Source of the DNA: Escherichia phage vB_EcoM_ESCO9
Direction: 5' to 3' (one strand)
Sequence record: OM386654.1
DNA: 64,000 nt
The notes under the pieces are model-generated. The model made no database searches. It worked only from the letters and a program-made list of their open reading frames with translations, and was not told where the DNA came from. Shown in pieces: positions 13,042 through 63,088 of this stretch. Position numbers and translations under genes: made by a program. Within the stretch, counting starts at the first letter, position 1. Every line of letters begins with the position of its first letter.

Positions 13042-15456
13042 TTAAGCATTATTGACAGTAACAAAAGTAACAGGGTTCAGAGCTTTAATTTGTGTATTCT
13101 CTGCTGTAGGTGTTACAATTGGATCTGCAATATCTATTGTGTACAAACTATTTGTCACATATGTAGCACGTGCTATAGTTGTCACAAGATCGCCGCCATT
13201 TGCACCTGCACCTGGAATAACAATCTTAGTACCTGCTGCTTTAGCGTAGCCATTACTAGCCCAGTTTAAAGCATTAGACTGTAGATAGGTTTGACCTGTA
13301 ACAGTTGCTTTTATTTTCTCGTTGGCACTAAAGAAAGCACCACCTACTGTAACAACATGTTTTTTACCGCTTGCACAATGAATAACTGTTCCAGTAGGGA
13401 ATTCACGCCCACCTGGGAATTCATCATAAGCTGTAAAATATTGTTCAGAGATAGTAGTTAAAACTGGCCCACGATGACCTGTTCCATCAACAGCAGTTGG
13501 AACACCAAAGTTATTTCCAACCTGATCGCAACGATCCGTGTAGATTTTAGCAAAAGAAACTGTTGTTTCATCTCCGCTAAGTGCTGTACATCCTACCCAC
13601 TTCATATACGTGAATTGGCTGCGAGTATAGAAACCGCCACCACTTCCTTCTCCGCTTCCGTGTTGACCAATAAAGTCAATACTACGGCAACGAATATTAT
13701 TAAAGGTAGAGCTAGATGGTAGCCCACGCCATTTAAAAACATTACAATTGATATTACTAACAATTGTAGAGTTTTCCCAGTCATCTGATCCAGATGTTGC
13801 AATCTCAATTGAAGATTCTGGAATATCCAAATTCTTAATTGTAAAGTTAATTGGTGGCCCCGCATATCTTCCACTGTTAACACCCCAGTCAATAAAGACC
13901 ATGCGTGTTGAAACAGACGGATCATTAAGCAGATAACCAGTTAAACCATCAACTTCAAAATCTTGGCATCCGTATAATGCAACACCACAAGTAGTTAAAC
14001 CTGTACCTGTTGAAACTGCTGTGTTAGGATAAACTTCATTATCACGTATTGTGAAGTTTTTACCCATTTCAACGTGTAAACATTGACGGCAATTGTAAAC
14101 CCTATTCCCAACGATACTGAAATTACGTACATATTGTGAATCAGGAACATCAACACCATATGGGCCACTACCTGCTACACCAATACCAATACCCCAGTTT
14201 GCACCTTGTCCAGAAGCATCTACGTTAGCAATGTGGTTATTCTCGATAATCAAACCTTCAGTGTAGTGTTTTTGAACTACGTTAAGTTCAATAGCATCAC
14301 CTTTAATATCGTGAATATAGTTGTTAGAGTAACGCCCGTAGGTCATTACTTCTCCAGTACCTTGTTGCAGGATCGCATATTTACAACCATACATTTCGTT
14401 GTAACTGAAGTCCAACGTACCTTCACTTGTCATTGCTTGCATTAAGAATGCTGCTGTAGATGTTGCGTTGGAGAAGATATTACGATAGAATCGGCAATCG
14501 CCACCTAACATCTTAACATAACATTTTTCAAAGCGAACGTTTTCCATCCAACAGGACACAGTAGAAATCATTGTTCCACCGTTACCAGTGAATGTACCAC
14601 CATACCAACGAATACCAGACATAGCAATTGAGCTTGTGAATCTATAATTCTTATCTGCACGTACTTGAATGTTATTCGTGTTAGCGAAAGTAATGGTTTT
14701 TAAAATTGCTTGGGTATCATCGGTAACTCCATCACCAATTGCACCAAACTGCTCAGGCGTTACAAAGTATTGAGCTTGTAACAGGTTGCCTCCAGATGGA
14801 AGACCAACCATTGCTGCACCAGTGGTAGATGACAAAAGGTTTTTCTCTACGTAAGAAGTAGAGGCTGTTGTTTTACCAATAAAAGCAAACAATTTGTTAG
14901 GTAGACCAGTAGACGGATCTAAACCTAATGGTTCTGCCAGAATAATTTTACTATCTTTGATAGTAAATGCTTCACCTTGAATCTGAATTACACCGTTAAT
15001 GGTGACAATAGCATTATCAAAGATATAAGGAGGACTGATTTCTGTTTCATATCCTGTAGCACCTTTAAAATACCAAGGATACACATCTGAAGCTAACTGT
15101 TCAGTTTTAAGAGCGTACAGAGTCCAGTTACTATCTCCTACAGGTGTACCCTGCATAGGTACAGGGTTAGCAGTAGTGGCAGATGGGGCATAATAGTATC
15201 CACTCAAGATACCGTTTTCAAAATAACGTAACTGGTTAAATACAGTTTCAGTTGATCCTGCTGACCAAGCAACAGGACTCTTAAAGAAGAAGTTATCAAC
15301 AAGTGCTTTACGCAGTGTAGGTATTAAACCTGTTTCGGTTTCTACAGTTGCTGTAGCATCCCCATTAATAACATCATGCATCTGGTTAGACGAGAATATA
15401 ACCAGATCAACACCTTGTTCTAGTGTCGTAGCAGGATATGTTGGAAAATTCGCCAT
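13042..15456 (-). CDS. tail fibre/tailspike protein, probable right-handed beta-helix
   Basis: 804 aa; repetitive N/G/T/S-rich segments typical of beta-helix tailspikes; in the fibre cluster. Confidence 0.5.
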   Translation of the reverse strand: MANFPTYPATTLEQGVDLVIFSSNQMHDVINGDATATVETETGLIPTLRKALVDNFFFKSPVAWSAGSTETVFNQLRYFENGILSGYYYAPSATTANPVPMQGTPVGDSNWTLYALKTEQLASDVYPWYFKGATGYETEISPPYIFDNAIVTINGVIQIQGEAFTIKDSKIILAEPLGLDPSTGLPNKLFAFIGKTTASTSYVEKNLLSSTTGAAMVGLPSGGNLLQAQYFVTPEQFGAIGDGVTDDTQAILKTITFANTNNIQVRADKNYRFTSSIAMSGIRWYGGTFTGNGGTMISTVSCWMENVRFEKCYVKMLGGDCRFYRNIFSNATSTAAFLMQAMTSEGTLDFSYNEMYGCKYAILQQGTGEVMTYGRYSNNYIHDIKGDAIELNVVQKHYTEGLIIENNHIANVDASGQGANWGIGIGVAGSGPYGVDVPDSQYVRNFSIVGNRVYNCRQCLHVEMGKNFTIRDNEVYPNTAVSTGTGLTTCGVALYGCQDFEVDGLTGYLLNDPSVSTRMVFIDWGVNSGRYAGPPINFTIKNLDIPESSIEIATSGSDDWENSTIVSNINCNVFKWRGLPSSSTFNNIRCRSIDFIGQHGSGEGSGGGFYTRSQFTYMKWVGCTALSGDETTVSFAKIYTDRCDQVGNNFGVPTAVDGTGHRGPVLTTISEQYFTAYDEFPGGREFPTGTVIHCASGKKHVVTVGGAFFSANEKIKATVTGQTYLQSNALNWASNGYAKAAGTKIVIPGAGANGGDLVTTIARATYVTNSLYTIDIADPIVTPTAENTQIKALNPVTFVTVNNA

Positions 15457-47889: not shown

Positions 47890-47979
47890 TGGAGGAAGAT
47901 AATGGAGTCGAACCATCACCGTATCACTACAATGGGCCAGGGTTCAAACCTGGTTGCGCACCGCTGCGCCCTACCTTCC
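47890..47979 (-). tRNA. tRNA-Ser (anticodon TGA), long variable arm
   Basis: 90 nt; anticodon arm CCAGG-UUUGAAC-CCUGG; T-arm GAUGG-UUCGACU-CCAUU; acceptor GGAAGGU/AUCUUCC with one G.U; CCA encoded. Confidence 0.65.
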
Positions 47980-47989
47980 CGTTATCATA

Positions 47990-48024
47990 CTTTAAATCTA
48001 ACATAAAACTATCTTGCTTGTCAA
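47990..48024 (-). promoter_or_regulatory. sigma70-like promoter for a tRNA transcription unit (-35 TTGACA, 17 nt, -10 TTAGAT)
   Basis: Minus-strand TTGACA at 48019-48024; -10 at 47996-48001; tRNA-Ser 5' end about 17 nt downstream. Confidence 0.4.
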
Positions 48025-48042
48025 GTAGTTTTTAAAACTTTT

Positions 48043-48124
48043 TGGCCGGGGTGACAGGATTCGAACCTGCATACTCCAATTACTCGGTTAACGCCTGATT
48101 AGAAGTCAGGTGAGATACACCCCG
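48043..48124 (-). tRNA. atypical tRNA-like (anticodon arm consistent with Arg-TCT; no recognisable D-arm)
   Basis: Acceptor CGGGGUG/CACCCCG, T-arm GCAGG-UUCGAAU-CCUGU, CCA, hairpin CCUGA-CUUCUAA-UCAGG; only 7 nt between acceptor and that hairpin, 23 nt after it. Confidence 0.4.
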
Positions 48125-48197
48125 TTTTTATAATGACTATAACAAAAAACTAAGTAAATGTCAAGATATTTTTTACTAAAATTACTATTTAAATTGA

Positions 48198-48303
48198 AGC
48201 CTAGTTATGGAATCGAACCATATTTCGTATTTAGTTAGACAAAGCGGTCTAACATATTTTTCAGGCTTTGATGGCCTCGGAATTACCAAATACCCTACTA
48301 GGC
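48198..48303 (-). tRNA. atypical 106-nt tRNA-like element; candidate anticodon loop CAUCAAA (UCA) in my fold
   Basis: Perfect 7-bp acceptor GCCUAGU/ACUAGGC; T-arm UAUGG-UUCGAUU-CCAUA; D-region GGUAUU-UGGU-AAUUCC; hairpin AGGC-CAUCAAA-GCCU; extra perfect 7-bp hairpin GUUAGAC-CGCUUU-GUCUAAC; no CCA encoded. Confidence 0.4.
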
Positions 48304-48305
48304 GT

Positions 48306-48391
48306 TGGTGCAAGTGGAGGGATTCGAACCCTCAATCATTTAAGCGTTGCGTTTTAAGCACAATGTGTATCACCAATTCCACCACACTTGC
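48306..48391 (-). tRNA. tRNA-Leu (anticodon TAA), long variable arm
   Basis: 86 nt; D-stem GUG/CAC; anticodon arm UUGUG-CUUAAAA-CGCAA; T-arm GAGGG-UUCGAAU-CCCUC; CCA encoded. Confidence 0.7.
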
Positions 48392-48422
48392 GTATAGGAG
48401 ATGCATAGCACCTCCTTTTAAA

Positions 48423-48498
48423 TGGTGGTTCCCCAGGGTTACAATCCCTGCCCTCGACACTTATGAGGTGTGCGCTCTCGTCAGTGAGCTATGGAACC
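48423..48498 (-). tRNA. tRNA-Met (anticodon CAT), second copy, non-canonical T-loop
   Basis: Acceptor GGUUCCA/GGGAACC; D-arm GCUC/GAGC; anticodon loop CUCAUAA; T-arm CAGGG-AUUGUAA-CCCUG; CCA encoded. Confidence 0.55.
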
Positions 48499-59541: not shown

Positions 59542-59820
59542 ATGTTAACAGCAGAAGATATCTTTAAACACGGTTTGCGTCAGGTAATCAAATCCTTGAA
59601 GAATGCAGGTATTGAAGATATCACACAGGAAATTGTTGGTTTAGAAAAAGAAGGTAAGAGAACAGAGTTTAAGTTTTACACAGAAGAACAGTGGTTGAGT
59701 AATCCGCAAAACAAAGCTAATGAGGCTGTTAGTCTGTTTGGTAAATCTTATAAAGGATTTAAATATCCTGATCATATTGTCGAATATGATGGTGTAAAAT
59801 ATTTTGTAGTTATTATTTGA
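59542..59820 (+). CDS. hypothetical protein (92 aa)
   Basis: ORF track; preceded by hairpin AGCCCC-TTCG-GGGGCT at 59512-59529. Confidence 0.45.
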   Translation: MLTAEDIFKHGLRQVIKSLKNAGIEDITQEIVGLEKEGKRTEFKFYTEEQWLSNPQNKANEAVSLFGKSYKGFKYPDHIVEYDGVKYFVVII

Positions 59821-59830
59821 GGAGAAAACT

Positions 59831-60715
59831 ATGTTTGCTAAAAATTTCAAATCTTGCGTAACCCTGATTTCTGGTGATGGTCTGTCTATTTCCGCACTGA
59901 ACACAGTAACAGACAAACCGCTGGATTTTGTTGTGGCACAGGGTCAACAAGCACATACCATTGGTCTTGTTCGTTTTGAAGATGATGGTTCCTATGTAAA
60001 AGTGTTCTCTGGTTTAGAGGTTATTAAAGTAGGGCAATCTGTTAAGAAAGTTAACAAGAAAAAAGTTAAACGCATTCTTAATGAAAAACTCCAAGAGATG
60101 GAACAAGAGTTTATTGCTGCAAATCCTACTAAAGAATTCTTCTTGGATAAAGAAAGTAAAAAAGCAATTGAGGCTGATATCGTGTTTTCTCTGCTCCCAG
60201 AGACAGAGGCAGATGATTTCTATAACTATGTTGTTGTAGACACTGAGAACAGTATTACCTACGTTCTTAATGGTACTAAGAAAATTAGTGAAGATATTGC
60301 TGTGTTTCTTCGTGAGGTGTTGGGTACTTTCCCAGTTCTGCCGTTTAGTGTACACGAAGAAGCCATTATTAAAGGTTTTGATACCATCTTAGAAGAACAT
60401 GAGGCTGAACGACTGACCCTTGGTAATTATATTAAACTTGAAGATTCTGAAGGTGTGGTTGTATGGAGTAAAGAATCCCTTTATGAATCTCGTGCAGTAG
60501 AACTTATGGAAGATGGTAAGCACGTTGTTGCCATTGGCCTGGAATATGACGGTTTCGTTAACTTTATTGTTGATAAAGAATTTAAGTTGAGTGGTATTAA
60601 ATTCCCTAAATACTTTAACGATGAAGAAGGATCTTTTGAAGCATCTGTCCTTCTGTGCTTTAATGAAATCCGTGGTATTATGCAAGACCTTATTAAGTCA
60701 ACTATTCAAAAATAA
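59831..60715 (+). CDS. hypothetical protein (294 aa)
   Basis: ORF track; RBS GGAGAA. Confidence 0.5.
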   Translation: MFAKNFKSCVTLISGDGLSISALNTVTDKPLDFVVAQGQQAHTIGLVRFEDDGSYVKVFSGLEVIKVGQSVKKVNKKKVKRILNEKLQEMEQEFIAANPTKEFFLDKESKKAIEADIVFSLLPETEADDFYNYVVVDTENSITYVLNGTKKISEDIAVFLREVLGTFPVLPFSVHEEAIIKGFDTILEEHEAERLTLGNYIKLEDSEGVVVWSKESLYESRAVELMEDGKHVVAIGLEYDGFVNFIVDKEFKLSGIKFPKYFNDEEGSFEASVLLCFNEIRGIMQDLIKSTIQK

Positions 60716-60718
60716 TAC

Positions 60719-60748
60719 TTGACTTACTAATTTAATATGTGTTAATAT
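60719..60748 (+). promoter_or_regulatory. sigma70-like promoter (-35 TTGACT, -10 TAATAT)
   Basis: TTGACT at 60719-60724, 18-nt spacer, TAATAT at 60743-60748 preceded by TGTG. Confidence 0.4.
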
Positions 60749-60789
60749 GCCTACCTACTTAGTTAGGTGGGCTTTTAAGGAGACACACC

Positions 60790-61002
60790 ATGAAAAAACT
60801 TCTTGTCGGTTTACTTTTAGTAATCAGTTCTTATTCTTATGCTGGTCAAATAACTTTAATTAATTCTGGAGAACAAGTTTCTGGAAGTACAAAATACTGT
60901 TTTTACTCTAACGGTATGTACGACAAGGTTATAGAGGTTTCTGCAAGTCGTCAGTGTCCCTACACACGAACATTCTCAACAGAGAGTTCAGATGATGAAT
61001 AG
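60790..61002 (+). CDS. small secreted protein (70 aa) with N-terminal signal peptide
   Basis: MKKLLVGLLLVISSYSYAGQ...; two Cys; RBS AAGGAG. Confidence 0.5.
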   Translation: MKKLLVGLLLVISSYSYAGQITLINSGEQVSGSTKYCFYSNGMYDKVIEVSASRQCPYTRTFSTESSDDE

Positions 61003-61010
61003 GAGGTAAT

Positions 61011-62129
61011 ATTAGCGGTTACATTTTAATCCAACCGGAAGACCTGCACAAATATGTTGACGAGAACACAATTCTTGCAATAGACTACGATCAAGTGGCG
61101 TTCCAAGCATCTTCAGCTTTAGAGCAAAGAAAAATCCACGCTGTACACAAGGCTTCCGGTAATGTAAAAGAGTTTGAAACAAGAACAGATTTTTGGGGTA
61201 AATCTTCAAAAAATATTGGAGGATGGTTAGGAGCACTTAACGCGCAACGCGAAGCTGCTGGTAAGAAGTTGTTCTCCAAGGAAGATTTTGAAATAAAAGA
61301 TGTTCAAATAGTCCCAGAGAATATTTCTTTTACGTTTCAAGCTGCAAAGACAAAAATAACCCAGATGGTGGATCACCTAAAACTTCAAAAGTATTGCGGT
61401 GTCATCGGGGTAGGAAAAACCTTCCGGCATTCTTTCAAAATGCCAAAAGAATATAAATCAGAACGATCAGATTTAAGACCAATCCAATTATCAGATACTA
61501 AAGATTATCTAGTTGAAAAACATAACGGTGACGTTGTTACTGGTATTGAGGCAGATGATGCTTTAGAAATCTATGGATATGCAGGGTATAAAGCCTACAA
61601 GGAAACTGGTAAGTTTTCTCATATTGTAGCATCTATCGACAAAGATAGCTTACACACACCAAGTTTACTCTTTAACTTTTATAAAGAGGATGGTGTTTAT
61701 AAAAATCCTTGTGTTATTCTGATTGATGAATCTATCGGTGATATCTGGATCGTAGAAAAAGGTAAGAAAAAAGAAGTTAAGGGTTGGGGTAGTTACTGGT
61801 TAGCTTATCAAATGCTAATGGGCGATAAGACAGATAGTATTCGACCTTACCAAGATTTCGATGTTAAGTTTGGAGATATTACTTGCTTTAATCTTATTTC
61901 CAAATGTAAAACACAGGCTGAACTTTTTCAGACAGTTAAAGATCAGTATTATGAATGGTTCCCAGATGGCGTTAAATTTACTTCTTGGGATGGTGAAGAA
62001 GTAGAAATGACAACTGATGAATGGATAGAGACAATTTTTCAGTTGGTATATATGAAACGTTGGGCGAATGATGAAACAACTTTTGAAAGTATGCTACAAG
62101 CATATATTTCAGAGCAGGAGGAACATTGA
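61011..62129 (+). CDS. 5'-3' exonuclease / flap endonuclease (RNase H-like); start codon uncertain, probably non-AUG
   Basis: GIEADDALE metal-binding motif; N-terminal-type motif ILAIDYDQVAF lies upstream of the first in-frame GTG (61095), with no in-frame ATG; AGGAGG at 61001-61006 precedes an in-frame ATT at 61011. Confidence 0.65.
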   Translation: MSGYILIQPEDLHKYVDENTILAIDYDQVAFQASSALEQRKIHAVHKASGNVKEFETRTDFWGKSSKNIGGWLGALNAQREAAGKKLFSKEDFEIKDVQIVPENISFTFQAAKTKITQMVDHLKLQKYCGVIGVGKTFRHSFKMPKEYKSERSDLRPIQLSDTKDYLVEKHNGDVVTGIEADDALEIYGYAGYKAYKETGKFSHIVASIDKDSLHTPSLLFNFYKEDGVYKNPCVILIDESIGDIWIVEKGKKKEVKGWGSYWLAYQMLMGDKTDSIRPYQDFDVKFGDITCFNLISKCKTQAELFQTVKDQYYEWFPDGVKFTSWDGEEVEMTTDEWIETIFQLVYMKRWANDETTFESMLQAYISEQEEH

Positions 62130-63088
62130 GTAAATTAACAGACGAACAGAAAGCCTTGATTGTATCTATGAAAGCACAAGGTTATTCTTCGCGTAAGATT
62201 GCACAAGAGGTGTTGGGAAGTTCTACTAAGAAGAGCACAGTAAATGATTACTTAGCTCGTGTAAATTCACCGCATCGCGGTGCTCCGCAAGATAAAGGTG
62301 GGCCAGTAATTAAAATTATTGACGTAGAGACAGCACCGGAGATTGTGTATAGCTTCTCACGTTTCAAAGCCTTTATTGCACCTGAACAAGTTATTCGTCG
62401 AGGTTACTTGCTTTCCTATTCATCTGCTGATTTAGAAACAGGGGAAGTAGAAGGTAAGAACCTTAGCAATTACCCTTTGTTTGACATAGATCATACGGAT
62501 GATTGGGAATTATGTCAAGATCTCTGGCACTTGCTTGACGATGCAGATATTGTGATCGCGCACAATGGTATTAAGTTTGATAAGGCTTATATTAACCAAC
62601 GTTTTGCTTTTCACGGTATGGAGCCACCATCACATTACGTTGTAATTGATACACTCAAGGCAGCTAAGAAGCAGTTTGCACTACCTTCTAATGCGCTTAA
62701 AGAAATGTGTTTGTATTTTGATACAGAAAACTTTAAACTTGATAATGAAGGTTTTCCTTTGTGGAAAGCATGTTGTGAAGGAGATAGACATGCCTTCTTC
62801 CGTATGCAAACATACAACGATGGTGATGTTGTTTCTCTTCGAGATCTTTACATCAAACTTCGTGCATGGATTCCACAACATCCTAACGTATCTGCATTCT
62901 ATGACGATGAAAAACTTCGTTGTCCTCGTTGCGGTAAAGAGCACCTTGAAGTTGTTCCTGGTAAGGTTTACACAACAGCGGTTAGTACATTCCAAGTGCT
63001 AAGATGCACATCATGTAATAGCCTGTCTCGTGGACGTGTTAATTTGCGTAGCAAAGAGAAGCGTGTAAACACTGTTATTGGAATTTAA
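62126..63088 (+). CDS. DEDD-family (DnaQ-like) 3'-5' exonuclease with N-terminal HTH-like segment and C-terminal zinc ribbon
   Basis: TTG start after AGGAGG; exo motifs IIDVETAP, IAHNGIKFD, YNDGDV; CPRCG...CTSCN. Confidence 0.6.
   Translation: MSKLTDEQKALIVSMKAQGYSSRKIAQEVLGSSTKKSTVNDYLARVNSPHRGAPQDKGGPVIKIIDVETAPEIVYSFSRFKAFIAPEQVIRRGYLLSYSSADLETGEVEGKNLSNYPLFDIDHTDDWELCQDLWHLLDDADIVIAHNGIKFDKAYINQRFAFHGMEPPSHYVVIDTLKAAKKQFALPSNALKEMCLYFDTENFKLDNEGFPLWKACCEGDRHAFFRMQTYNDGDVVSLRDLYIKLRAWIPQHPNVSAFYDDEKLRCPRCGKEHLEVVPGKVYTTAVSTFQVLRCTSCNSLSRGRVNLRSKEKRVNTVIGI

Follow-up and report, generated by a model that had tools for sequence, protein, structure and literature searches.

Initiation at the near-cognate codon AUU is already established, and confirmed AUU starts in the Escherichia coli system are very few, namely those of infC, which encodes IF3, and pcnB, which encodes poly(A) polymerase I (bioRxiv 10.1101/063800). 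In both genes, the AUU codon stands behind a Shine–Dalgarno sequence. The near-cognate start of infC is phylogenetically conserved, being AUU or AUC in relatives, and the IF3-dependent regulation at this start has been stressed (PMC5499595). It forms part of an IF3 autoregulatory loop, whereas the presumed role of AUU in pcnB is to limit a protein whose excess does harm. Initiation from AUA, AUC, and AUU amounts to 1–2% of that from AUG in E. coli reporters, and the presence of N-terminal Met in a protein started from AUC was demonstrated by mass spectrometry (bioRxiv 10.1101/063800); elsewhere, the efficiency of near-cognate codons is given as 5–7.5% (PMC5499595).

The gene considered here appears to be an additional, well-supported case. 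It has the same proposed arrangement, an AUU codon behind a Shine–Dalgarno sequence, relies on the same E. coli translation machinery, and, like infC, shows a near-cognate start conserved among relatives; the likeness to pcnB lies in the possible harm caused by an excess of the product. The differences are that this is a phage DNA nuclease gene, that its AUU initiation is predicted from sequence, that there is no evidence of an autoregulatory loop of the infC type, and that its relatives use all three Ile codons (AUU, AUC, and AUA). Three of the features by which a near-cognate gene can be recognized were found: a protein N-terminus encoded upstream of the canonical starts, appropriate Shine–Dalgarno spacing, and a conserved codon in the orthologs.

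The window, which is the whole analyzed stretch of 64,000 nucleotides from Escherichia phage vB_EcoM_ESCO9 (OM386654.1), was compared with phage genomes in the region 60700–62300. The level of identity was 99–99.9% to 55 genomes of the genus Justusliebigvirus (phi92, muut, PaulScherrer, and others), and by this sequence identity the window belongs to a phi92-like phage of Justusliebigvirus. The nuclease gene is a homolog of phi92 gp085, annotated there as ‘putative (5'-)exonuclease’. The order of genes along the strand is as follows: an RdgC-like gene, a 70-aa ORF encoding a small signal-peptide protein (gp086 homolog), the nuclease gene, and a DnaQ-like 3'-5' exonuclease gene. The nuclease thus belongs to a phage replication/recombination module with these neighbors. 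The features of the locus are listed below.

60719..60748, + strand: sigma-70-like promoter match by consensus (TTGACT, 18 nt, TAATAT, with an upstream TG)
60790..61002, + strand: upstream 70-aa ORF, homolog of phi92 gp086, small signal-peptide protein (SignalP signal-peptide note in the phi92 record)
61001..61007, + strand: Shine–Dalgarno sequence AGGAGG(T), at the modal spacing in the window and with homologous sequence in 22 lineages
61011..61013, + strand: ATT, proposed near-cognate initiation codon, presumably read as fMet (comparative data; ESCO13 CDS annotation)
61011..61094, + strand: 28-codon N-terminal extension with invariant D25 and D27, strand beta1, and the start of helix 1
61083-61085, + strand: D25, invariant, upstream of GTG
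61089-61091, + strand: D27, invariant, upstream of GTG
61095..61097, + strand: GTG, usually annotated start, most likely internal Val29; without a Shine–Dalgarno sequence and unconserved as a start
61011..62129, + strand: full-length nuclease gene (5'-3' exonuclease/flap-endonuclease fold), 372 codons and TGA
62126..63088, + strand: DnaQ-like 3'-5' exonuclease gene, downstream, in the context of the replication module

The DnaQ-like gene starts with TTG at 62126, overlapping the nuclease stop codon TGA (62127-62129), and its AGGAGG (62116-62121) is separated from the start by 4 nt, the same spacer as for the nuclease ATT. It is another gene with a weak start within the module of the nuclease. 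The sigma-70-like match at 60719-60748 sits in the 74-nt gap 5' of the gp086 homolog and might drive a gp086–nuclease unit; such matches are no more frequent in the window than in shuffled sequence.

The reading frame is as the earlier note had described it. The GTG-started ORF of 344 aa with the GIEADD motif is present at 61095..62129 and contains ‘VVTGIEADDALE’. Its frame is open back to 60999, being preceded by an in-frame TGA at 60996-60998, and the codons from 60999 read ATA GGA GGT AAT ATT AGC ... GAT CAA GTG. The codon listing contains no ATG, GTG, or TTG among the 32 codons of 60999-61094. AGGAGG at 61001-61006 and ATT at 61011-61013 are both found where that note had placed them, and the TAG at 61000-61002 does end the upstream ORF; this stop codon overlaps the Shine–Dalgarno sequence of the nuclease and lies 8 nt before the AUU. 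The conserved segment ILAIDYDQVAF is encoded by 61071-61103, i.e., most of it precedes GTG 61095, the first canonical start.

The spacer between GGAGG and ATT 61011 is 4 nt. This is the commonest class (6 of 23) among the GGAGG sites of the window that stand before a canonical start, with ORFs of 50 or more codons counted, and the neighboring genes at 59542, 62126, and 63127 share it. A crude scan of approximately 78 genes of the window for near-cognate extensions singled out the nuclease gene as the only one with a long extension and a Shine–Dalgarno sequence, and no second near-cognate-start gene was found by a systematic scan of the window. The combinations of GGAGG with a near-cognate codon near 14793 (- strand), 15029 (+), 12805 (-), and 3205 (+) were rejected as candidates, being located inside longer ORFs or opposite one. 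The RNA folding around ATT and GTG is no stabler than that of shuffled sequences (z-scores of -0.59 and -0.21, respectively).

Several independent lines of sequence comparison and structural modelling agree that the 28 codons upstream of GTG are translated. When the 27 codons after the start were compared in eight lineages, the pairwise pS values were 0.57–1.0, i.e., saturated, and the pN values were 0.08–0.25; judging from these values, the extension evolves under purifying selection as protein in this frame. D25 and D27 are invariant in the alignment of 35 homologs with 33–78% identity. The PHROG 107 ‘exonuclease’ profile matches residues 10-367 of the ATT-started protein. A tblastn search of 50,697 phage records found matches in 1020 of them, and the first aligned query residue for distant phages (rV5-like, PVP-SE1-like, ICP1, and others) lies between 1 and 11, upstream of Val29. 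The AlphaFold2 model constructed from the alignment has a pLDDT of 95.3 and a pTM of 0.88, with a pLDDT of 97–98 for residues 11-30; it predicts a strand at residues 5-7, a helix at 9-14, a strand at 21-25 (ILAID), and a helix at 26-37. The earlier note would have been contradicted by orthologs that start at the position of GTG and lack ILAIDYD; in every ortholog examined at the DNA level, this segment is encoded.

The comparison of start regions in 22 lineages revealed a common layout: a (T)AGGAGG-like motif, a spacer of 3–5 nt, and one codon at the same position, followed by (S)G(Y/F) or GYP. The aligned codon is ATT in the phi92-like and ESCO13-like phages and in L021-L028, L027, and L103; ATC in L011/L017, L013/L019, L096, and L098/99; and ATA in L097, while L014/L020 and L102 have the arrangement ATT-ATC. 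In total, an Ile codon (ATT, ATC, or ATA; AUH in RNA) is the first behind the Shine–Dalgarno sequence in approximately 15 lineages with 48–100% amino-acid identity, and ATG is found there in none of them. In L013/L019, an in-frame TAA directly precedes the ATC, and therefore no start further upstream is possible there. The rV5-like, PVP-SE1-like, and related large myoviruses share the protein family, the position of the N-terminus, and the layout of Shine–Dalgarno sequence and short spacer, with a canonical codon at the aligned start: TTG in the rV5-like phages and several others, GTG in the PVP-SE1-like phages and L048, and ATG in five lineages. Since these are canonical starts, the rV5-like and PVP-SE1-like orthologs are annotated at full length. 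The alignment with related exonucleases, which the earlier note had suggested as a check, places the canonical starts found in distant relatives at codon 1, i.e., at ATT 61011.

In three distant AUH lineages the start is ambiguous. In L100 and L104, an ATG lacking a Shine–Dalgarno sequence lies nine codons downstream of the AUH codon, although the peptide between the two is kept between these lineages (..F.TI[SP]), and in L101 a TTG lies within the Shine–Dalgarno sequence. It can be noted that in all three (L100 553-700, L104 344-480, and L101 401-440; 48–56% identity), AGGAGGA followed by ATT or ATA is located upstream of the called start. Judging from these sequences, the called starts in L100, L104, and L101 are probably wrong as well.

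The AUU initiation proposed earlier is supported by these comparative data: the modal spacing, AUH in the relatives, and the replacement of GTG 61095 by other codons. It is very likely that AUU 61011 is the start codon of the nuclease gene and is used by near-cognate initiation, and GTG 61095 most likely encodes the internal Val29. The opposite reading, in which GTG is the real and only start, the 28 codons form a leader that is not translated, and the protein is 344 aa long, may draw on the fact that GTG is the first canonical start codon in the frame and that this or a later start is used in all annotated Justusliebigvirus records examined, as judged by the coordinates or by the lack of a feature over the extension. 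However, the phi92 record itself remarks on this CDS ‘No RBS identified; weak Prodigal statistics’, and the codon aligned to GTG is ATT in L004 and L011, ATA in L013, and GTT in L014, so that the codon is unconserved in relatives as well as devoid of a Shine–Dalgarno sequence. The PHROG and tblastn homology starts upstream of it, and the strong coding constraint on the extension with its invariant D25 and D27 is difficult to reconcile with a leader. According to the model, a start at residue 29 would remove the core strand 21-25 and cut the following helix. Taken together, this makes a GTG-only start extremely improbable. Initiation at another near-cognate codon of the extension, i.e., ATT 61023, ATC 61029, or CTG 61044, deserves consideration in that all three are in frame and upstream of D25, and I5 and I7 are conserved Ile (AUH) codons in relatives. 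These codons are located 16, 22, and 37 nt downstream of the sole Shine–Dalgarno sequence, relatives have CTT, TTA, or CTA in place of CTG 61044, the model shows an ordered strand at residues 4-7, and the canonical starts of distant relatives correspond to codon 1 and not to codons 5, 7, or 12, all of which makes this reading quite improbable. The least credible explanation is an artefact, either a sequencing or assembly error that hides an ATG or a read-through or frameshift fusion of the nuclease with the upstream ORF. The check for a sequencing error revealed none: the region 60990-61040 is identical in 52 of the 55 independently sequenced genomes, and the phi92 record, read directly, retains the ATT and the Shine–Dalgarno sequence, with a single difference lying outside both. 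A database protein of 444 aa (P0002, from a cluster with 48 member sequences) does look as if the gp086-like ORF and the nuclease had been fused in frame. It was rejected as a real fusion: its DNA (L096 601-1935, Logan SRR30397360 contig) has a TAG at the junction, which the gene caller read as Gln, and translation with table 11 does not give P0002. Whereas the upstream ORF of the window is in the +1 frame relative to the nuclease, the two share one frame in L004, L011, and L013; because of this difference, there is no conserved fusion mechanism, and the explanation by artefact or fusion is largely refuted.

The reading that differs least from AUU initiation at 61011 is termination–reinitiation, in which ribosomes arriving from the TAG of the gp086-like ORF restart at the same AUU and de novo initiation from the Shine–Dalgarno sequence is negligible. 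In every AUH lineage examined, the frame-opening in-frame stop lies at most approximately 50 nt (no more than 16 codons) upstream of the AUH codon, and the stop of the upstream ORF, where checked, is within approximately 15 nt of it; fMet-tRNA serves in E. coli re-initiation, which IF3 modulates (PMC2268962). On the other hand, the distant relatives with ATG, GTG, or TTG starts share this close stop-to-start layout, which is typical of phage operons, the relative frame of the two ORFs differs between lineages as described above, and a conserved strong Shine–Dalgarno sequence at the optimal spacing is a requirement of de novo initiation. Re-initiation as the dominant route is therefore unlikely, and, given that the start codon would be the same AUU, it would refine the main explanation rather than replace it. 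Direct initiation at AUU 61011 and coupled re-initiation there, the alternative that the earlier note had also named, are both compatible with the sequence.

If AUU 61011 is the start codon, the strong Shine–Dalgarno sequence AGGAGG(U) (61001-61007), 4 nt upstream, would position the 30S subunit at the AUU, and the initiator fMet-tRNA would pair with it with a mismatch at the third position, so that fMet would be inserted and a nuclease of 372 residues produced. Some of the initiation at this codon may come from ribosomes that terminate at the upstream TAG, which precedes the AUU by 8 nt. The similar behavior of AUU, AUC, and AUA in the reporter assays fits the drift between ATT, ATC, and ATA among the relatives. 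Given an efficiency of 1–2% of AUG, the start codon most likely keeps the nuclease level low, and a weak AUU start would keep a potentially harmful DNA nuclease scarce. The synthesis of the nuclease may also become sensitive to IF3 fidelity.

The probable low nuclease level through the AUU start can be viewed against the start codons of the whole family. ATG is used in about five of approximately 25 nuclease lineages, versus approximately 73–78% in a crude gene call of the window. Together with the AUH clade, in which ATG is missing although synonymous sites are saturated with changes, this paucity is suggestive of selection that keeps nuclease expression low. The absence of ATG among approximately 15 lineages is modest statistical evidence for selection against AUG: the probability of a chance absence is about 0.75^15 if the lineages are independent and the bases equiprobable; in fact, the lineages share ancestry, and A and T predominate in the genome. 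We tentatively consider a further possibility, which is more doubtful than not, that selection against AUG has kept the AUH start across a deep clade of large E. coli/enterobacterial myoviruses as a translational throttle or sensor. In that case, nuclease synthesis might, for example, depend on IF3 fidelity, on ribosome/mRNA competition, or on coupling to the upstream ORF, and production of a replication nuclease would be restricted to a fixed low amount or to a certain phase of infection; the preference of the wider family for TTG and GTG would then be part of the same constraint. A phage family in which an AUH start has been retained through saturating divergence, and whose sister clades use canonical starts at that codon, offers a natural test system for the questions of why near-cognate starts persist and how phage mRNAs cope with IF3 discrimination.

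As to the protein itself, it is predicted to have the FEN/5'-3' exonuclease fold (PIN-like 5'-nuclease) and to represent a divergent subfamily. The FEN fold that defines the superfamily was recovered, and since the Pfam search with the query protein gave no hit to PF02739 (5_3_exonuc_N), the superfamily membership rests on the fold and the motifs (PHROG 107). The relatives score 16–35.5 bits against PF02739, with a gathering cut-off of 34.3 that only P0090 passes; their 5_3_exonuc_N alignments, mostly below the threshold, begin only at profile position ~30. The comparison of the family profile with the Pfam-positive 5'-3' exonuclease P0090 by hhalign gave a probability of 99.5% over the IEADD, DKD, and GDxxD motifs in the central and C-terminal parts. 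The acidic cluster of FENs was sought as the motifs ExDD, DxD, and GDxxD and an N-terminal Asp, and the acidic residues D25, D27, E180, D182, D183, D210, D212, D272, and D275 are invariant in 35 homologs.

The sequence is very divergent from those of the T5 D15 flap endonuclease, T4 RNase H, and bacterial FEN/ExoIX, from which the nuclease also differs in an insertion of approximately 60 residues after helix 1 and in a second invariant Asp (D27). Judging from the boundaries of the Pfam hits and the secondary-structure elements of the model, the insertion comprises a beta-hairpin and a helix after the first strand and helix (window 61122-61310, residues ~38-100). Neither phmmer nor a profile search against PDB sequences returned anything relevant, and the hhalign probability for the family profile versus the T4 RNase H sequence (1TFR) was 0.5. 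No residue-level alignment of D25 to the first FEN carboxylate was obtained by phmmer, profile search, hhalign, or Pfam, which can be explained by the beginning of 5_3_exonuc_N at profile position ~30 and by the insertion of ~60 residues after helix 1. The segment ILAIDYDQVAF resembles ICLIDFSQIAL of T4 RNase H (sequence verified as 1TFR); this resemblance is a lead supported by the modelled fold and not a demonstrated equivalence. In the earlier note, the segment had been matched to the N-terminal metal-binding region of the family. Metal binding is a candidate role for D25/D27, suggested by fold and motif. IGVGK of the nuclease stands where T5 FEN has its second carboxylate, in a motif that we take to be LGDKG. 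The composition of the metal site may thus differ from that of canonical FENs.

The start codon has left a trace in the databases. The query consisting of the extension matched 55 Justusliebigvirus records; among the 46 with annotation, 45 lack any feature there. The remaining one, vB_Eco_PATM (OX090893), was rejected as an annotation of the ATT start because its feature is a spurious reverse-strand ORF labelled ‘putative exonuclease’, and the real nuclease gene is called even shorter in this record; apparently, the lack of a canonical start led to an annotation error driven by blastx. The shadow ORF of 74 aa, antisense to the nuclease N-terminus, lies at 61012-61236 (- strand) in the window and at 299-523 in L095. 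The extension also matched 65 Phapecoctavirus-like records, and among the annotated ones listed, only ESCO13 (KX552041.2/NC_047770) has the long form, its CDS being annotated from the homologous ATT; the genome announcement of ESCO13 leaves the ATT start unmentioned. In approximately 100 annotated relatives checked, the ATT start is annotated in ESCO13 only. Searches of the literature turned up neither a paper mentioning this start codon nor an N-terminal, proteomic, toeprint, or ribosome-profiling report. Gene callers limited to ATG, GTG, and TTG cannot find such a start, and in practice a truncation error runs through the database entries of the family: nearly all Justusliebigvirus, Phapecoctavirus, and related metagenomic records carry a nuclease truncated by 28 codons at the N-terminus. 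Cloning of the annotated ORF would probably yield an inactive or misfolded protein, with a core beta-strand and two invariant Asp residues gone.

Besides the nuclease locus, the window contains the following feature of the translation apparatus.

45460-48498, - strand: tRNA gene cluster of 15 genes, including tRNA-Ile(GAT) and two tRNA-Met(CAT)

Bacterial initiator tRNAs typically carry three consecutive G:C pairs in the anticodon stem. On inspection by eye, these pairs are missing from both tRNA-Met(CAT) genes, at 45682-45760 and 48423-48498 (- strand); a phage-encoded initiator-like tRNA was set aside as an explanation of the AUU start. Both genes may be elongator Met genes or genes of tRNA-Ile2 (lysidine).
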